DNA from: a virus
Taxonomy: Duplodnaviria; Heunggongvirae; Uroviricota; Caudoviricetes
Reading direction: 5' to 3' (one strand)
IMG/VR virus record: IMGVR_UViG_2541047165_000024
Length of the DNA: 9,704 bases
How positions within the stretch are numbered: position 1 is the stretch's first letter; each line of letters begins with the position of its first letter. Both the position numbers and the translations under genes were made by a program. Shown piece by piece: positions 2,497 to 9,704 of the stretch. The notes beneath the pieces were generated by a model that was given only the letters and a program-made list of their open reading frames with translations, had not been told where the DNA came from and made no database searches.

Positions 2497-2523
2497 ATGC
2501 CGGATGCTTGCTTGTGTCCGGCG
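2497..2523. terminator. Hairpin (GCCGGA-N12-TCCGGC) between convergent genes, a possible weak bidirectional terminator
   Basis: Inverted repeat at about 2499-2504 and 2517-2522, in the 114-bp gap between the plus-strand ORF (ends 2459) and the minus-strand small ORF (ends 2574). On the minus strand it is followed by AUGCUCUUU. There is no strong U-tract, so this is a weak call. Confidence 0.3.
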
Positions 2524-2573
2524 CGTGTGCACCACTCTCCCCCCGTGGAGGATTCCTTAATTACCAGATTTCA

Positions 2574-2804
2574 TTAGTCAGAGTTTCTTGCTAACCAGCG
2601 ACGCGCGCCAGATTCGGTTTTAAACGTTTTGCTTTTGGTATACGTCATCGCGGTGAACGTGCCGTCCTGGTTGGGAAACACGCCGCACACCAGAGATTCG
2701 TTGTTGCCAAGATCAAGAGTATCCATGCTGACCTCATATCCCCTTAACGCCGGGGTAGCGGAACAAAAACCTGCTGCATAGTTAAAGTTGAACCCTGCCG
2801 TCAT
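2574..2804 (-). CDS. Small hypothetical protein (76 aa), first gene downstream of the leftward pL-like promoter
   Basis: Minus-strand ORF with ATG at 2802-2804, preceded by GAGG about 9 nt upstream. It lies about 95 nt downstream of a near-consensus sigma-70 promoter that is overlapped by operator palindromes. It has no arginine-rich N-terminus, so it is not N-like. Function unknown. Confidence 0.5.
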   Translation of the reverse strand: MTAGFNFNYAAGFCSATPALRGYEVSMDTLDLGNNESLVCGVFPNQDGTFTAMTYTKSKTFKTESGARRWLARNSD

Positions 2805-2899
2805 GTTCTTACGCCTCGGGCTGGCTACTTAATCCCTGACCACTGCCGGGTAACTCTAGGTATTGCCCTGTATTGTGTGGGACGGGATGGGTTGGTATG

Positions 2900-2950
2900 G
2901 GAAAACTATAGGAAATGCCTAATTGCTTGTCAATAGGCTACGCCTAATGA
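2900..2950 (-). promoter_or_regulatory. Leftward pL-like promoter (-35 TTGACA, 17-bp spacer, -10 TATAGT) with overlapping operator sites (OL)
   Basis: On the minus strand the sequence reads TTAGGCgtaGCCTATTGACA-agcaattaggcatttcc-TATAGT. The -35 is at plus 2928-2933 and the -10 at 2905-2910. One operator palindrome abuts the -35 (about 2932-2947). A second TTAGGC half-site pair lies across the spacer and -10 (about 2908-2922). The layout is a mirror image of the cassette on the other side of the repressor gene. Confidence 0.6.
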
Positions 2951-3005
2951 TTTGGGTGCGACCTAATAGGTGATGGTTTGTGGGAGAGGTAGTAGGAGTT
3001 AACTA

Positions 3006-3027
3006 ACGGGAACTAGGAATTTCCCGT
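3006..3027 (-). terminator. Hairpin (ACGGGAA-N8-TTCCCGT) just downstream of the repressor stop, a candidate terminator or insulator
   Basis: Inverted repeat at 3006-3012 and 3021-3027, directly after the repressor stop (3042-3044) on the minus strand. The trailing sequence is only moderately U-rich (UAGUUAACU). Confidence 0.3.
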
Positions 3028-3041
3028 CGGACCATATAAGT

Positions 3042-3518
3042 TTAAGTTCCTGTCTTGGTGATGTTCTGGCTTTTCCGTTTTGATTCTTGATTTTTCAGAT
3101 AGTTAGCTACCTTCATTTCCATTGCGGCAATGTAGGCACGAACGTCATGATCAACCCAACTAGGCTCCGTAGCATTTCCAGATAAGAGGAAAGCCACAAT
3201 TGCTCTTTTTTCATCAGAGGCGGCTTGATAAAGGCTGTTTATGTCTAAAAGTTCACTTTTTGTATCTGAAGTGGATGGGGTTGGTATGGGGTATTCGTTA
3301 AGCCCCCAATGCTCTGGACCAACCACATCAGAAAAGAAACGCCATAGTTCTGGAAGTTTGTCTTTACTTATCGAACCTTTCTTAATCCAGTCATGGATTG
3401 ATGGTGGTTGGACTTTGAAATGACGTGCGATTTCCGCCTTTGATTTGACGGCTCCTGATGCAATTTTTTTGTTAATGGCCTGCTCTATCGCTCGGCCTAA
3501 GTCTTTACCACTAAGCAT
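3042..3518 (-). CDS. racR: Prophage immunity repressor, HTH (XRE/CI-like) without a LexA-type peptidase domain; RacR-like
   Basis: 158-aa ORF with an N-terminal HTH region (…KSKAEIARHFKVQPPSIHDWIKKGSISKDKLPELW…) and an AGGAGA RBS. It is divergent from a Cro-like gene and flanked on both sides by operator-bearing promoters. Size and context match the RacR position of Rac-type prophages. The symbol is given as a family-level analogy only. Confidence 0.85.
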   Translation of the reverse strand: MLSGKDLGRAIEQAINKKIASGAVKSKAEIARHFKVQPPSIHDWIKKGSISKDKLPELWRFFSDVVGPEHWGLNEYPIPTPSTSDTKSELLDINSLYQAASDEKRAIVAFLLSGNATEPSWVDHDVRAYIAAMEMKVANYLKNQESKRKSQNITKTGT

Positions 3519-3544
3519 TGCTTAATAGTCTCCTATGCGCATCG

Positions 3545-3616
3545 CATTAGGCAATACCTACTCTCGAAGCGTTAGGCATAGCCTATTGACAGTTGCATTA
3601 GGCTAAGCCTAATATT
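3545..3616 (+). promoter_or_regulatory. Rightward pR-like promoter (-35 TTGACA 3586-3591, -10 TAATAT about 3610-3615) with three operator-like palindromes (OR)
   Basis: Operators read from the sequence: TTAGGCaatACCTAC (about 3547-3561), TTAGGCataGCCTAT (3572-3586, abutting the -35) and the near-perfect TTAGGCtaaGCCTAA (3598-3612, overlapping the -10). This is a classical tripartite operator over divergent promoters. Confidence 0.65.
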
Positions 3617-3642
3617 ATTGTGTGTTTTTTGGAGTTCATTCG

Positions 3643-3966
3643 ATGAAAAAAGATAACTATTCATTCAAACGAGCTTGTGCTGTTGTCGGTGGGCAATCAG
3701 CAATGGCTAGGCTTTTAGGTGTATCTCCTCCAAGCGTAAATCAATGGATCAAAGGTGTACGTCAGTTGCCTGCTGAGAGATGTCCTGCGATTGAACGAGC
3801 AACAAAAGGTGGTGTCCTGTGTGAAGAACTTCGTCCTGATGTTGATTGGACATACTTACGACGCTCGTCATGTTATTCGCAGAATATGTCGATGAAGCAA
3901 CCAAATGACGAAAACGATCATACCCGAAGCATCAAGAGGCAAATGATTCATGAAAATCAAACATGA
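3643..3966 (+). CDS. ydaS: Cro-like HTH regulator of the YdaS type
   Basis: ATG at 3643 with GGAG 8 nt upstream. The track's GTG at 3622 gives an unlikely extension. The HTH region (…ACAVVGGQSAMARLLGVSPPSVNQWIKGVRQLPAERCPAIE…) is typical of Cro/YdaS-like proteins encoded divergently from the repressor. Confidence 0.8.
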   Translation: MKKDNYSFKRACAVVGGQSAMARLLGVSPPSVNQWIKGVRQLPAERCPAIERATKGGVLCEELRPDVDWTYLRRSSCYSQNMSMKQPNDENDHTRSIKRQMIHENQT

Positions 3967-4375
3967 GCACATCCGCATGGCGATGAATGCCTGGGCATAT
4001 CCTGATGGTGAGAAAGTTCCTGCAGCTGAAATAGCCCGGACTTATTTCGAACTGGGGATGACGTTCCCGGAACTGTACGACGACAGCCATCCGGAAGCCC
4101 TGGCTCGTAATACCCAGAAAATTTTCCGTTGGCTGGATAAAGACACCCCTGATGCTGTTGAAAAAATGCAGGCTCTGTTACCGGCGATCGAAAAGGCAAT
4201 GCCGCCTCTGCTGGTGGCCCGTATGCGCAGTCACAGCTCTGAATATTACCGTGAGATCGTCGAACGGAGGGATCGGCTGGTGAAAGATGTGGATGATTTT
4301 GTCGCAGCGGCGATCGCCTGGGGCACCCTGACTAACAGTGGGGGTCAGCCTGGTAATGCTGTTGTCGTGCATTGA
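3950..4375 (+). CDS. ydaT: YdaT-like protein (prophage toxin-like, repressor-controlled)
   Basis: 141-aa ORF overlapping the end of the ydaS-like gene by 17 nt, so probably translationally coupled. The N-terminus MKIKHEHI… and the position directly after the cro-like gene match the YdaT family of Rac-like prophages. Assignment is from recall, not a search. Confidence 0.78.
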   Translation: MKIKHEHIRMAMNAWAYPDGEKVPAAEIARTYFELGMTFPELYDDSHPEALARNTQKIFRWLDKDTPDAVEKMQALLPAIEKAMPPLLVARMRSHSSEYYREIVERRDRLVKDVDDFVAAAIAWGTLTNSGGQPGNAVVVH

Positions 4376-5481: not shown

Positions 5482-5935
5482 ACAGCAAATCCGGCAGGTC
5501 TGCCGTCAGTGCATGGACCGCTGCCGGGCGGGTGAAACGTGGCCTCCGGACCTGGCTGAGTTTGTGGCGTTGATTTCGGAGAGCGGGGCAAATCCATTTG
5601 GCCTGACGGTGGATGCCGTGATGGAGGAGTACCGTCGCTGGAGGAATGAATCCTGGCGGTACGACGGGAGTGATAAATACCCGTGGCCACAGCCGGTGCT
5701 GTACCACATTTGCCTCGAGATGCGTGACAGAGGGATTGAGCGGCAGATGACGGAAGGTGAGTTAAAACGACTTGCAGAACGGCAACTGACGAAATGGGCA
5801 AAGCAAGTTGGTAACGGGATGAGTATTCCCCCGATCCGGAGACAACTCGCATCGCCGAAGTGCCCGCAAGGGCCAACGCCAATTGAATTACTGAAACAGG
5901 AATACGAGCGCCGGAAGGCGGCTGGTTTTGTTTGA
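5273..5935 (+). CDS. Lambda P-like replication protein (helicase loader)
   Basis: ATG at 5273 is preceded by a strong AAGGGGG SD. The C-terminal half aligns by eye with lambda P (ours: WPPDLAEFVALI…DKYPWPQPVLYHI…MTEGELKRLAERQL; lambda P: LPSPGQFVAWC…ESYPWKSNAHYWL…LTDAELRRKAADEL). It overlaps the 3' end of the O-like ORF by about 209 nt in another frame. Confidence 0.8.
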   Translation: MQHQVAPHHGQFRKFGQHVNSGNVKTDLSATETAWKLWELMGEVYSNRWTQKNGAAPSKLWIAQIGAMTEQQIRQVCRQCMDRCRAGETWPPDLAEFVALISESGANPFGLTVDAVMEEYRRWRNESWRYDGSDKYPWPQPVLYHICLEMRDRGIERQMTEGELKRLAERQLTKWAKQVGNGMSIPPIRRQLASPKCPQGPTPIELLKQEYERRKAAGFV

Positions 5936-5968: not shown

Positions 5969-6685
5969 ATGGAAACCGTATCTGACGCACTGAAAGCACT
6001 GAAAAGAGCCTCTTCACATGTGGTGGCAGCTCGCCTTGGAATTAGTCGTGAAGAGGCTGTCAACGAACTGTGGAAACTGAAACGCCGTGGAGAAGCGGAT
6101 AACAAGGGGGCGATATGGTGGCTGACTCAGGCTGGTGAAAGTGAACCGGTGTCACCGGTACCGAAAGTGACGGCGCAAATGCTGACAGAGGCGATTGAAC
6201 AACATGGCCCACAAACGGCGGATGAACTGGCATTGATGTTCGGAATTACCTCCCGCCGGGCGAATTCATCGCTGGCAATGGCAATCAGCAAAGGGTGTCT
6301 GATTCGCGTGAATCAGGATGGTAAATTTCGTTACTGCATACCGGGCGTTGATTTACCGGCAGAGCCGAAAGCAGCATCCGTAGCTGAAACGGAGGGTAAA
6401 GCCCTTCCTCAGCCAGCTGGTGTTGCGTTACCAGTCCAGGAAACGGCTGCACAGGAAGAAATTAAAACAGAAGCGGTGGAGGACATTGTGAAGTTGCAGC
6501 AATCGTTCACTGAAGCGAAAGCAGATGACCTGATTCTACCATCGCTGCATGTGGCTAACCGCGAGCTGCGCCGGGCGAAAAGTAATGTTCAGAAGTGGGA
6601 GCGAGTCTGTGCTGCGCTACGGGAACTGAACAAACACAGGGATATTCTCCGGGATATTACCGCCACCAGAGAGCAGCAGCGGTGA
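5969..6685 (+). CDS. Hypothetical protein with two winged-helix-like repeats
   Basis: ATG at 5969 with GGAGG 8 nt upstream; the track's TTG at 5951 is unlikely. Two internal segments resemble each other (…[23 protein letters not shown]… and …[31 protein letters not shown]…). No Walker motifs are present. Confidence 0.65.
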
Positions 6686-6999
6686 GTGGCTGGAAGAAGT
6701 GGCGCTGGGCTGAAATCCTGATACTCCGGCAGTGTGCGGGAACGATGAGAGTCGAAAGCATCGGTTATCTGATTGGCCGTAGTGAGTCAGCCGTCAGGAC
6801 GAAAGCGCGGGAACTGGGTATCAGCATGATGTTACGGGGTGATTATCACCAGTCAGCCAAATGTTCACAGCGTGATATTGAGCTGGCGTGGCAACTGCAT
6901 CAGCGTGGTGTACCCCGACGGGAAATTGCCGAAAAGTTTGGGATGAAGTTGGGCGCAGTGAATAACTACGTTTATTTCGACAGGAGGGTTCAGGAGTGA
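6682..6999 (+). CDS. Small hypothetical protein with two HTH-like segments (possible DNA-binding)
   Basis: A GTG start at 6682 overlaps the upstream stop (GTGA), giving about 105 aa. The track's ATG at 6595 lies inside the upstream gene. The start choice is inference. Confidence 0.5.
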
Positions 7000-7298
7000 G
7001 GGTGAGGGTTTATATCGCCGGTCCGATGACGGGATATGAAAATTTTAACCGCGAGGCATTTCACAAAACGGAAGAGGTGCTGAAACGGGAAGGGCATACC
7101 GTTTTAAACCCGGCAGTACTTCCGGACGGGCTGACTCAGCCACACTACATGGATATTTGCATGGCAATGCTCCGTTGCGTGGATGCGGTTTACATGCTGA
7201 AAGGCTGGCAGCAGTCGGCAGGTGCAGGGGCTGAGCTGGCACTGGAGGAGAAACCGGGCCATGCGGTGATTTTTCAGGAGGTGGGCAGTGAATATTGA
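6996..7298 (+). CDS. DUF4406-like (nucleoside 2-deoxyribosyltransferase-like fold) protein
   Basis: N-terminal motif VYIAGPMTG…NFNREAF…VLNP, typical of this Rossmann-like family common in prophages. GTG start with GGAGGG upstream. Confidence 0.72.
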   Translation: MRVRVYIAGPMTGYENFNREAFHKTEEVLKREGHTVLNPAVLPDGLTQPHYMDICMAMLRCVDAVYMLKGWQQSAGAGAELALEEKPGHAVIFQEVGSEY

Positions 7299-9333: not shown

Positions 9334-9434
9334 GGTAAAAACGGTTTGCGGTAAAGCGAGAGTTAAGTAGAATTGCTGCGGGTGCTTGAGGCTGTCTGCC
9401 TCGGGCATGCCACCGTAAGGTAGACAGAGAAAAG

Positions 9435-9505
9435 CCCCAGTTAACATTACGCGTCCTGCAAGACGCCTAACATTAATCTGAGGCCAATTTCATGCTAGAC
9501 ACATG
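9435..9505 (-). ncRNA. sok: Predicted sok-like antisense RNA of the hok locus
   Basis: This is inference. A candidate minus-strand promoter (-35 TTGCCT at plus 9530-9535, 17-bp spacer, weak -10 TAACCT at 9507-9512) would start a transcript near 9500. That transcript would be antisense to the mok SD (GAGG about 9480-9483) and start codon (9492), as in hok/sok loci. The 3' end and terminator were not identified. Confidence 0.3.
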
Positions 9506-9704
9506 TAGGTTAGCCTCTTACGCGCCGAAAGGCAAGGAGAAGCAGGCTATGAAGCAGCAAAAGGCGATGTTAATCGCCCTGATCGTCATCTGTATCACCG
9601 TCATAGTGACGGCACTGGTAACGAGGAAAGACCTCTGCGAGGTACGAATCCGAACCGGCCAGACGGAGGTCGCTGTCTTCACAGCTTACGAACCTGAGGA
9701 GTAA
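9492..9704 (+). CDS. mok: mok-like reading frame (in-frame N-terminal extension overlapping hok)
   Basis: ATG at 9492 with GAGG 8 nt upstream. It reads in frame through hok to the same stop, consistent with the mok/hok arrangement in which mok translation is coupled to hok expression. Confidence 0.65.
   Translation: MLDTCRLASYAPKGKEKQAMKQQKAMLIALIVICITVIVTALVTRKDLCEVRIRTGQTEVAVFTAYEPEE
9549..9704 (+). CDS. hok: Hok/Gef family type I toxin (HokD/RelF-like), 51 aa
   Basis: Translation MKQQKAMLIALIVICITVIVTALVTRKDLCEVRIRTGQTEVAVFTAYEPEE is unmistakably Hok/Gef family. ATG at 9549 with AAGGAGA 8 nt upstream. The stop TAA is the last codon of the window. Confidence 0.92.
   Translation: MKQQKAMLIALIVICITVIVTALVTRKDLCEVRIRTGQTEVAVFTAYEPEE

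Follow-up and report, generated by a model that had tools for sequence, protein, structure and literature searches.

The DNA analyzed here, referred to as the window, is a stretch of 9,704 nucleotides (9.7 kb) from a tailed virus (Caudoviricetes; IMG/VR record IMGVR_UViG_2541047165_000024), and the subject is the region around its repressor gene racR, which is flanked on both sides by operator-like palindromes. Positions are those of the window, and L- and P-numbers denote compared loci and database proteins, respectively. The window is 100% identical to chromosomes of Escherichia coli O157:H7, e.g. EC4115 at about 1,488,013, and belongs to a lambdoid prophage that is integrated between potC and potB and by annotation also carries the type III effector genes nleL, espN, and espK. 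Transcribed divergently from racR is an operon of a ydaS-like and a ydaT-like gene, with replication genes next. Leftward from racR follow an 80-bp gap, the left cassette described below, a DUF1391 gene, a gene in the opposed orientation, an exonuclease pseudogene, xis, and int. When aligned with the Rac prophage of E. coli K-12, the immunity region has a mean column identity of 92% and retains every site as well as the two promoters; it is present in 1086 of 5426 complete E. coli genomes, about one in five. In this section of the window lies the lysogeny-control (immunity) region of the O157:H7 prophage, a lambdoid prophage of the Rac type. Its features are collected in Table 1.

Table 1. Features of the immunity region and of compared loci. 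OL and OR, left and right operators; PL and PR, leftward and rightward promoters; mismatches are to TTAGGC-N3-GCCTAA.
Feature	Position	Strand	Remarks
DUF1391 (YdaF-like) gene	2574–2804	−	First gene downstream of PL-like promoter; PF07151, E = 6.6e-30; PHROG 751
PL-like −10 hexamer TATAGT	2905–2910	−	Consensus scan 11/12 for the promoter; identical in K-12
OL1 ATAGGAAATGCCTAA	2908–2922		Over PL spacer and first 3 bases of −10
PL-like −35 hexamer TTGACA	2928–2933	−	17-bp spacer to −10; TGACA after GCCTAT kept across distant loci
OL2 ATAGGCTACGCCTAA	2933–2947		Abuts PL −35 and shares 1 base with it
Decamer ACCTAATAGG	2961–2970		Palindrome ACCTA-A-TAGGT between racR 3' end and OL2
racR (158 residues)	3042–3518	−	NCBIfam RacR equivalog NF049929, 246.8 bits (cutoff 200); racR in RefSeq
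Isolated half-site GCCTAA	3495–3500		Inside racR coding sequence; from match 3486–3500
racR start-codon site CTAAGCATTGCTTAA	3511–3525		3 mismatches; the published O3, degenerate in Escherichia
Probable −10 GAGACT of leaderless racR promoter	3527–3532	−	From K-12 alignment; counterpart of GAGAAT in PracR3
Extra right site TTAGGCAATACCTAC	3547–3561		2 mismatches; over likely −35 of racR promoter
OR2 TTAGGCATAGCCTAT	3572–3586		Abuts −35 of rightward promoter; lies in K-12 footprinted region
PR/PydaS promoter, TTGACA-18 bp-TAATAT	3586–3615 (−35, 3586–3591; −10, 3610–3615)	+	10/12 consensus matches
OR1 TTAGGCTAAGCCTAA	3598–3612		Perfect palindrome (0 mismatches) over PR spacer and −10
ydaS-like gene	3643–3966	+	Cro analogue; PF15943, E = 3.8e-30; P22_Cro match; 85% identity to K-12 YdaS
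ydaT-like gene	3950–4375	+	CII analogue; PF06254, E = 2.6e-10; PDB 8bt1, E = 8.7e-80
S24-fusion gene, L173	3501–4352
S24-fusion gene, L174	3501–4361
S24-fusion gene, L176	3501–4208

A first-pass annotation, made from the sequence of the window, had proposed that one promoter/operator module built on TTAGGC-N3-GCCTAA palindromes flanks the repressor gene in opposite orientation. This was examined with the search pattern TTAGGCNNNGCCTAA, allowing up to three or up to two mismatches; for the stricter limit the expectation is the mean of Markov shuffles. With up to three mismatches the window contains 11 matches against 3.06 expected, a number reached by 0 of 200 shuffles, and 8 of the 11 fall within 2908–3612. 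With up to two mismatches there are 5 matches against 0.29 expected, and all of them flank racR, two to the left and three to the right. Three pairs of sites have a spacing of 25–26 bp, which was seen in 0 of 300 shuffles. The number of sites and their spacing thus exclude a chance cluster. A consensus promoter scan of 2500–4000 gave exactly two promoter-like sites, one per strand; by number they do not exceed the mean of 2.0 found in shuffles, and their significance lies in the register shared with the operators. On both sides of racR, GCCTAT and TTGACA share one T, at the end of the former and the start of the latter, and the second palindrome starts 10–11 bp past the first and reaches 3 bases into the −10 hexamer. 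The symmetry is also visible as a 25-nt inverted repeat with arms at 2928–2952 and 3567–3591, which are 88% complementary and each consist of a −35 hexamer and the adjoining palindrome. Operator clusters of one consensus are therefore found on both sides of racR, each overlapping an outward sigma-70-like promoter, and site statistics, register, and inverted repeat together bear out the mirror-image module. The palindrome put forward is also the published RacR consensus, (T/A)TAGGC-n3-GCCTA(T/A) (PMC9638921). The rest of the prophage was also searched for such sites, and none with up to two mismatches was found elsewhere in 58.6 kb that cover the complete prophage together with part of the host flank.

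For K-12 Rac, the right-hand cluster has been described before. Krishnamurthi et al. (2017; PMC5700373) described three variant GCCTAA/TTAGGC repeats in the 123-bp racR-ydaS spacer, on which K-12 RacR formed three complexes in electrophoretic mobility shift assays (EMSA) and was enriched in chromatin immunoprecipitation with quantitative PCR (ChIP-qPCR), and a ydaS reporter was repressed. Wisniewska et al. (2022; PMC9638921) mapped a single PydaS start by primer extension, with the hexamers TTGACA/TAATAT and loss of activity upon mutation of the −10, as well as three racR promoters, one of them leaderless. In the same study, DNase I footprints covered the ydaST promoter at the lowest RacR concentration and the racR side at higher ones, OR being protected at about 30–300 nM; nine half-sites were listed, and the consensus above was reported, with O1 on PydaS, O3 on the racR ATG, and one extra single half-site within racR. 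A further report (PMC11014345) counted four inverted repeats in the spacer and found RacR to be an octamer on size exclusion; it described the RacR regulon as not characterized in detail and the racR-proximal ydaFG operon as uncharacterized. The consensus −35 abutting a palindrome on the right of racR, noted in the first pass, was confirmed, and both hexamers are the same as those mapped for K-12 PydaS. Likewise, the predicted repression of the rightward ydaS/ydaT operon has been demonstrated for the K-12 orthologue by EMSA, ChIP-qPCR, footprints, and reporters (PMC5700373, PMC9638921). RacR of the window is 92% identical to K-12 RacR over 158 residues, and based on this identity and on identical half-sites it is expected to bind the right sites and to repress PydaS.

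Between PR and the racR start, the picture differs in one respect from that drawn in the first pass, where a third, weaker right site was placed nearest the racR start. The site itself is real, with two mismatches, whereas the position nearest racR is taken by another site that covers the ATG. The extra site TTAGGCAATACCTAC was seen only in Escherichia-type regions; distant loci pass from OR2 directly to the ATG site with 35-bp spacing. In these distant loci, apart from L014 (Aeromonas), the ATG site reads TTAGGCAATGCTTAG/A and is a much better match; it is likewise present in the phage loci, ending in C in the Pseudomonas phages. The ATG site is probably the autoregulatory site of the leaderless racR transcript, and the GAGACT hexamer is probably the −10 of the corresponding promoter, as judged from the K-12 alignment.

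The left-hand half was not found described. No account of RacR sites or of a promoter downstream of racR was found in the searchable literature, although an early mention in the 1996 kil paper (Conter et al.) or in older sbcA work is possible. In the window, OL2 fits the published (T/A)TAGGC-n3-GCCTA(T/A) perfectly, and OL1 has two mismatches to TTAGGC-N3-GCCTAA and one to the published degenerate consensus. The same left cassette is present in K-12, at L002 2130–2169, with its −10 at L002 2127–2132. A PL start is predicted near 2898 on the minus strand, corresponding to about 1,419,620 in MG1655. A third left operator at 2952–2966, with three mismatches, was considered and rejected, as its left half and spacer vary freely and only the decamer ACCTAATAGG is kept. 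This decamer is invariant in 57 Escherichia-type sequences and K-12 while its neighbors vary, is absent from the distant loci, and looks like two everted, overlapping RacR half-sites. A search for a terminator between racR and PL yielded nothing beyond a hairpin of 8 bp that lacks a U tract (z = −1.18), and no structured RNA was detected in the PL leader (z = 0.04). An exact 13-nt direct repeat, GGGTTGGTATGGG, occurs at 2889–2901, the predicted PL transcription start, and at 3278–3290 in the racR linker-coding region. It was rejected as an element and is probably fortuitous, because conservation is lacking both in K-12 and among the Escherichia sequences.

Conservation of the operators was assessed at two distances. 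Scans of IMG/VR returned close Escherichia relatives only, and the test within Escherichia used 57 distinct sequences of the region. In these, 6 of 60 positions are variable in the half-sites of the five firm sites, compared with 9 of 15 in their N3 centers and 84 of 209 at other intergenic positions (Fisher test: half-sites versus other intergenic positions, p = 4.6e-6; half-sites versus N3 spacers, p = 1.2e-4). In the same set, the PL hexamers hardly vary. Beyond Escherichia coli, the cassette TTAGGC-N3-GCCTAT|TGACA-N5-TTAGGC-N3-GCCTAA|TAT recurs downstream of RacR-type repressors, pointing away from them, in otherwise unrelated flanks. It was found in E. ruysiae, Mixta mediterraneensis (64% protein identity), a Pseudomonadota metagenome-assembled genome (58%), Proteus mirabilis (61%), two Achromobacter genomes, Klebsiella phage KpF5, three Pseudomonas phages, and the genome locus L176. 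A site equivalent to OL1 holds the same position in the cassettes of Mixta, Proteus, Achromobacter, KpF5, the Pseudomonas phages, and L176. In KpF5 and Achromobacter the cassette lies 1.4–2.3 kb beyond the repressor, with other genes between them. The comparative evidence argues strongly that the left cassette is the expected, well-conserved lambda-type left operator/promoter, new relative to the literature found.

These results bear on whether the left cassette functions at all. It might be a non-functional relic, either a duplicate of OR2-PR left in a prophage that is decaying or a cluster that arose by chance, and the degraded left arm with its exonuclease pseudogene, as well as the 88% similarity of the two cassettes over 25 nt, would fit such an origin. 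Chance is excluded by the site statistics, however, and the half-sites are conserved while spacers and flanks drift. As the cassette moreover recurs in the intact isolated phages KpF5 and VW-6S and in other bacterial classes, a relic is extremely unlikely.

Three further observations were made around the distant cassettes. A boxA-like cgctctttaa is located 50–60 nt downstream of the left cassette in the Pseudomonas phage loci, as would be expected for an early-left transcript. In the same loci, LexA-box-like palindromes (tactgtttatttaaacagta; ctgtatatccatacag) lie 80–100 bp upstream of the cassette; the regions concerned are L173 about 6450–6650, L174 about 6920–7110, and L175 about 5565–5750. 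In KpF5 (L172 4149–5303), a DUF450 gene separates the left cassette from the RacR-type repressor, in the place that rexAB has in lambda. It had no match in PADLOC and may be a lysogen-expressed accessory or defense gene.

Very likely, the region works as a lambda-like switch in which RacR silences PR through OR and PL through OL, with the weak sites autoregulating racR. RacR would bind the 15-bp palindromes (T/A)TAGGC-N3-GCCTA(T/A) as a dimer-of-helix-turn-helix (HTH) unit. At OR1 and OR2 it would block RNA polymerase at PR/PydaS and so silence ydaS, ydaT, and the replication genes, and its binding to the weaker sites 3547–3561 and 3511–3525 would most likely autoregulate racR. At OL2 and OL1, RacR is predicted to occlude PL, a putatively strong outward promoter. 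In the window, PL would drive the early-left genes, namely the DUF1391 gene, the exonuclease remnant, xis, and int; in K-12 Rac its targets would be ydaG-ydaF-kilR-ydaE-racC-recET-ralR-xis-int. A RacR-repressed leftward promoter predicts that the leftward genes rise upon RacR depletion, and this has been observed: in three transcriptome studies ydaG, ydaF, kilR, ydaE, racC, recE, recT, ralR, xisR, and intR were strongly up. As xis and int lie in the path of PL, excision should also be promoted when RacR is lost, which has been reported for K-12 Rac. Repression of the left operon by RacR is a prediction that conservation strongly supports and that also fits these published RNA sequencing (RNA-seq) data.

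A second possibility is that the left sites are merely auxiliary anchors for long-range looping by which repression and autoregulation at OR are tightened, PL being no significant promoter and the leftward genes being driven from elsewhere. RacR has been reported as an octamer and OL and OR are 640–690 bp apart; furthermore, PL is proposed from its consensus alone, and the count of promoter-like sites does not exceed that of shuffles. Yet even between very distant loci, the two hexamers and the operators are conserved jointly, and the boxA-like motif follows the cassette in the Pseudomonas phages. The 11/12 sigma-70 match, moreover, sits in a fixed operator register that is mirrored at the verified PydaS, which is difficult to account for if PL is no promoter. 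A role as anchors only is therefore very unlikely. As part of the proposed switch, on the other hand, RacR octamers may bridge OL and OR in the way that lambda CI does, and the reported octamer makes such a loop plausible.

The role of YdaS needs to be considered as well, because YdaS and RacR have related HTHs. There is a weak match of RacR to the Pfam model for YdaS, and the HTH regions of the two proteins align at 41% over 29 residues, including PPS(I/V)xxWIK; the relatedness extends to the probable recognition helix. YdaS may accordingly compete for RacR sites, and it probably uses the same sites as RacR. YdaS has been reported not to repress racR (PMC9638921), so that the analogy with Cro is incomplete. 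The left sites might even be used mainly or only by the Cro-like YdaS, which would turn off early-left transcription after induction, with RacR silencing the left arm only indirectly. Besides the related recognition helices, YdaS repression of PL933P in prophage CP-933P would agree with this; there, however, the repressor PaaR2 represses PL933P too. Moreover, the left sites fit the consensus footprinted with RacR no less well than OR2. The leftward genes stay silent in lysogens, in which YdaS is undetectable (PMC5700373), and go up on RacR depletion. It is likely that RacR and YdaS share the left sites, and their exclusive use by YdaS is very unlikely.

Several points weigh against the proposed RacR switch. 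OL1 in the window has a mismatch in its core (ATAGGA), and there are two convincing left sites where lambda has three. The literature found gives neither RacR binding at the left sites nor a mapped PL start, and the rise of leftward transcripts in RNA-seq could be partly indirect, via YdaS/YdaT or prophage excision. No OL pair was found within about 2.5 kb of flank in L010 (Klebsiella), L012 (Nitrosomonas), or L014 (Aeromonas). Finally, looping between OL and OR is purely inferential.

The repressor protein was analyzed with respect to its mode of inactivation. RacR consists of an N-terminal XRE-type HTH domain, a disordered linker at about residues 80–90, and a helical C-terminal domain. The AlphaFold (AF2) model has a mean predicted local distance difference test (pLDDT) score of 79.4 and is all-helical, with no strands. 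A fold search gave weak XRE-type HTH matches only (E ≥ 0.08) and no match for the C-terminal domain, and Peptidase_S24 (PF00717) did not match RacR even at E ≤ 10. Together with the presence of PF00717 in relatives, this upholds the first-pass view that RacR lacks a LexA-like cleavage domain. Without an S24 domain, induction cannot proceed by RecA-stimulated self-cleavage of RacR; either RacR must be lost or titrated, or an antirepressor must act on it. Lemire et al. (2011; PMC3121763) named RacR and DicA among the non-cleavable repressors that are candidates for antirepressor control, and such control, which the first pass had also suggested, is a hypothesis for RacR. Across the lineages found, the DNA-binding domain of RacR is nearly invariant, including the stretch PPSIHDWIKKGSISKDKLPELW, in agreement with the unchanged operator half-site.

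By annotation, the same prophage contains two Ant-like genes, at L015 5090–5659 and L015 23119–23997. The first, encoding an "antirepressor N-terminal domain," lies inside the lysis cassette. The second belongs to a P22 immI-like set at L015 22342–23997, in which two Arc-family genes are followed by an Ant antirepressor gene, between tail genes. Neither a RacR site nor a LexA box was found near either gene, and a search of the 58.6 kb spanning the prophage for LexA boxes (CTGT-N8-ACAG with an AT-rich center) gave none that was convincing. An antirepressor might also be encoded by another prophage.

Related repressors combine this DNA-binding domain with other C-terminal parts. An N-terminal domain of the RacR type is joined to Peptidase_S24 in Pseudomonas phages vB_PaeS-D14H and VW-6S and in L176, all with the same TTAGGC-type OR and OL cassettes (genes in Table 1); among database proteins, P0101 (Pectobacterium aroidearum), P0102, and P0114 are such fusions. 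The RacR-type N-terminal domain also occurs alone, as proteins of 77–93 residues, in Achromobacter, Nitrosomonas, and Aeromonas. A tentative idea, held with some doubt, is that the DNA-binding domain and its OR/OL cassettes make up a portable module for immunity, to which C-terminal parts of at least three kinds (none, helical oligomerization, S24) have been attached, and that a RacR octamer bridges the approximately 0.65 kb between the clusters in a loop needed for tight silencing of kilR, recET, and xis-int and for racR autoregulation via the weak sites. If so, phages and prophages of equal immunity specificity would differ in their inducibility by DNA damage.

Compared with lambda, the region shows the same arrangement of a repressor gene between two operator clusters of one consensus that cover outward early promoters. 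A leaderless repressor transcript and weaker sites on the repressor's own promoter are common to both, and the reported RacR octamer adds to the likeness. Lambda also has its OL beyond rexAB, similar to the cassettes of KpF5 and Achromobacter that lie beyond intervening genes. The center-to-center spacing of lambda operators is 23–24 bp, and that of the RacR sites is 25–26 bp; OL and OR are about 2.4 kb apart in lambda and about 0.65 kb apart here. In contrast, there is no sequence similarity past the XRE-type HTH fold, and the RacR operator is 15 bp long with an N3 center, whereas that of lambda has 17 bp. Lambda has three operators on either side; the present region has two firm ones on the left and four, plus a lone half-site, on the right. 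The C-terminal domain of RacR is helical and not S24, so that RecA-mediated cleavage is not possible.

K-12 Rac is the closest system, with orthologous RacR and YdaS, the same operator consensus and PydaS hexamers, the same number and order of spacer sites, and the same left cassette. It differs in that the O157:H7 prophage sits at potC/potB, has a YdaT of the CP-933P type, and has lost most of its left arm; furthermore, the racR −10 is GAGAAT in K-12 and GAGACT here. CP-933P with its PaaR2-YdaS-YdaT system (Jurenas 2021; PMC8630535) is likewise a lambdoid switch with YdaS and YdaT, and the YdaT of the window is of its type. There, PL has −35 and −10 hexamers identical to those of PR, carries OL1–3, and lies beside the repressor operon, and green fluorescent protein (GFP) fusions were repressed by PaaR2 and YdaS (PMC8630535). 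The CP-933P repressor is PaaR2, however, its operators are repeats of the GTTTAGTAA type, and the paaA2-parE2 toxin-antitoxin genes are co-transcribed with the repressor gene. The Gifsy-type repressors (PMC3121763) share with RacR a length of about 150 residues and the absence of a cleavage domain, but they are inactivated by antirepressors, whereas no evidence links RacR to the Ant-like genes of this prophage.

RacR belongs to the small set of transcription factors that are essential in K-12. The left operator/promoter offers a direct mechanism for the silencing by RacR of the division inhibitor KilR, of RecET, and of xis-int, and it gives the exact bases to mutate. Two predictions follow: the effector-carrying prophage of O157:H7 would be held in place by RacR, and Rac-type prophages would be mutually immune. 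The known picture of lambdoid switches is unchanged, the region being a lambda-like switch of the ordinary kind, to which the left half adds something new but modest.

The genes on either side of the region show traces of exchange and decay. YdaT of the window is only 31% identical to YdaT of K-12 Rac and is of the CP-933P type, not of the Rac type. RacR and YdaS do belong to the Rac type, which places a mosaic junction within the ydaS-ydaT operon. The sequence ATGATTCATGAAAATCAA at 3943–3960 spans the ydaS stop and the ydaT start and has one mismatch to the CP-933P YdaT box, TTGATT-N6-AATCAA; its position agrees with that of the OM site reported for CP-933P at the ydaS end, or ydaS-ydaT junction. 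On the left, RefSeq gives the DUF1391 gene as a shorter open reading frame (ORF), 2574–2726. The early-left arm (1422–2459) is decayed or largely deleted: the 3'-5' exonuclease is a pseudogene that lacks its N-terminus (1422–1823 in RefSeq, extending to 1859 in the ORF list), and a gene for 171 residues at 1944–2459 (PHROG 1244; no match in PADLOC) faces the PL-like promoter head-on, a position held by sieB in K-12 Rac. Near the right end of the window, a sok antisense RNA at 9380–9554 (RF01794, 114 bits) is the only Rfam match in the window. Adjoining it is a hok-like toxin ORF, hokD in the EC4115 annotation, which runs off the window end at 9704.

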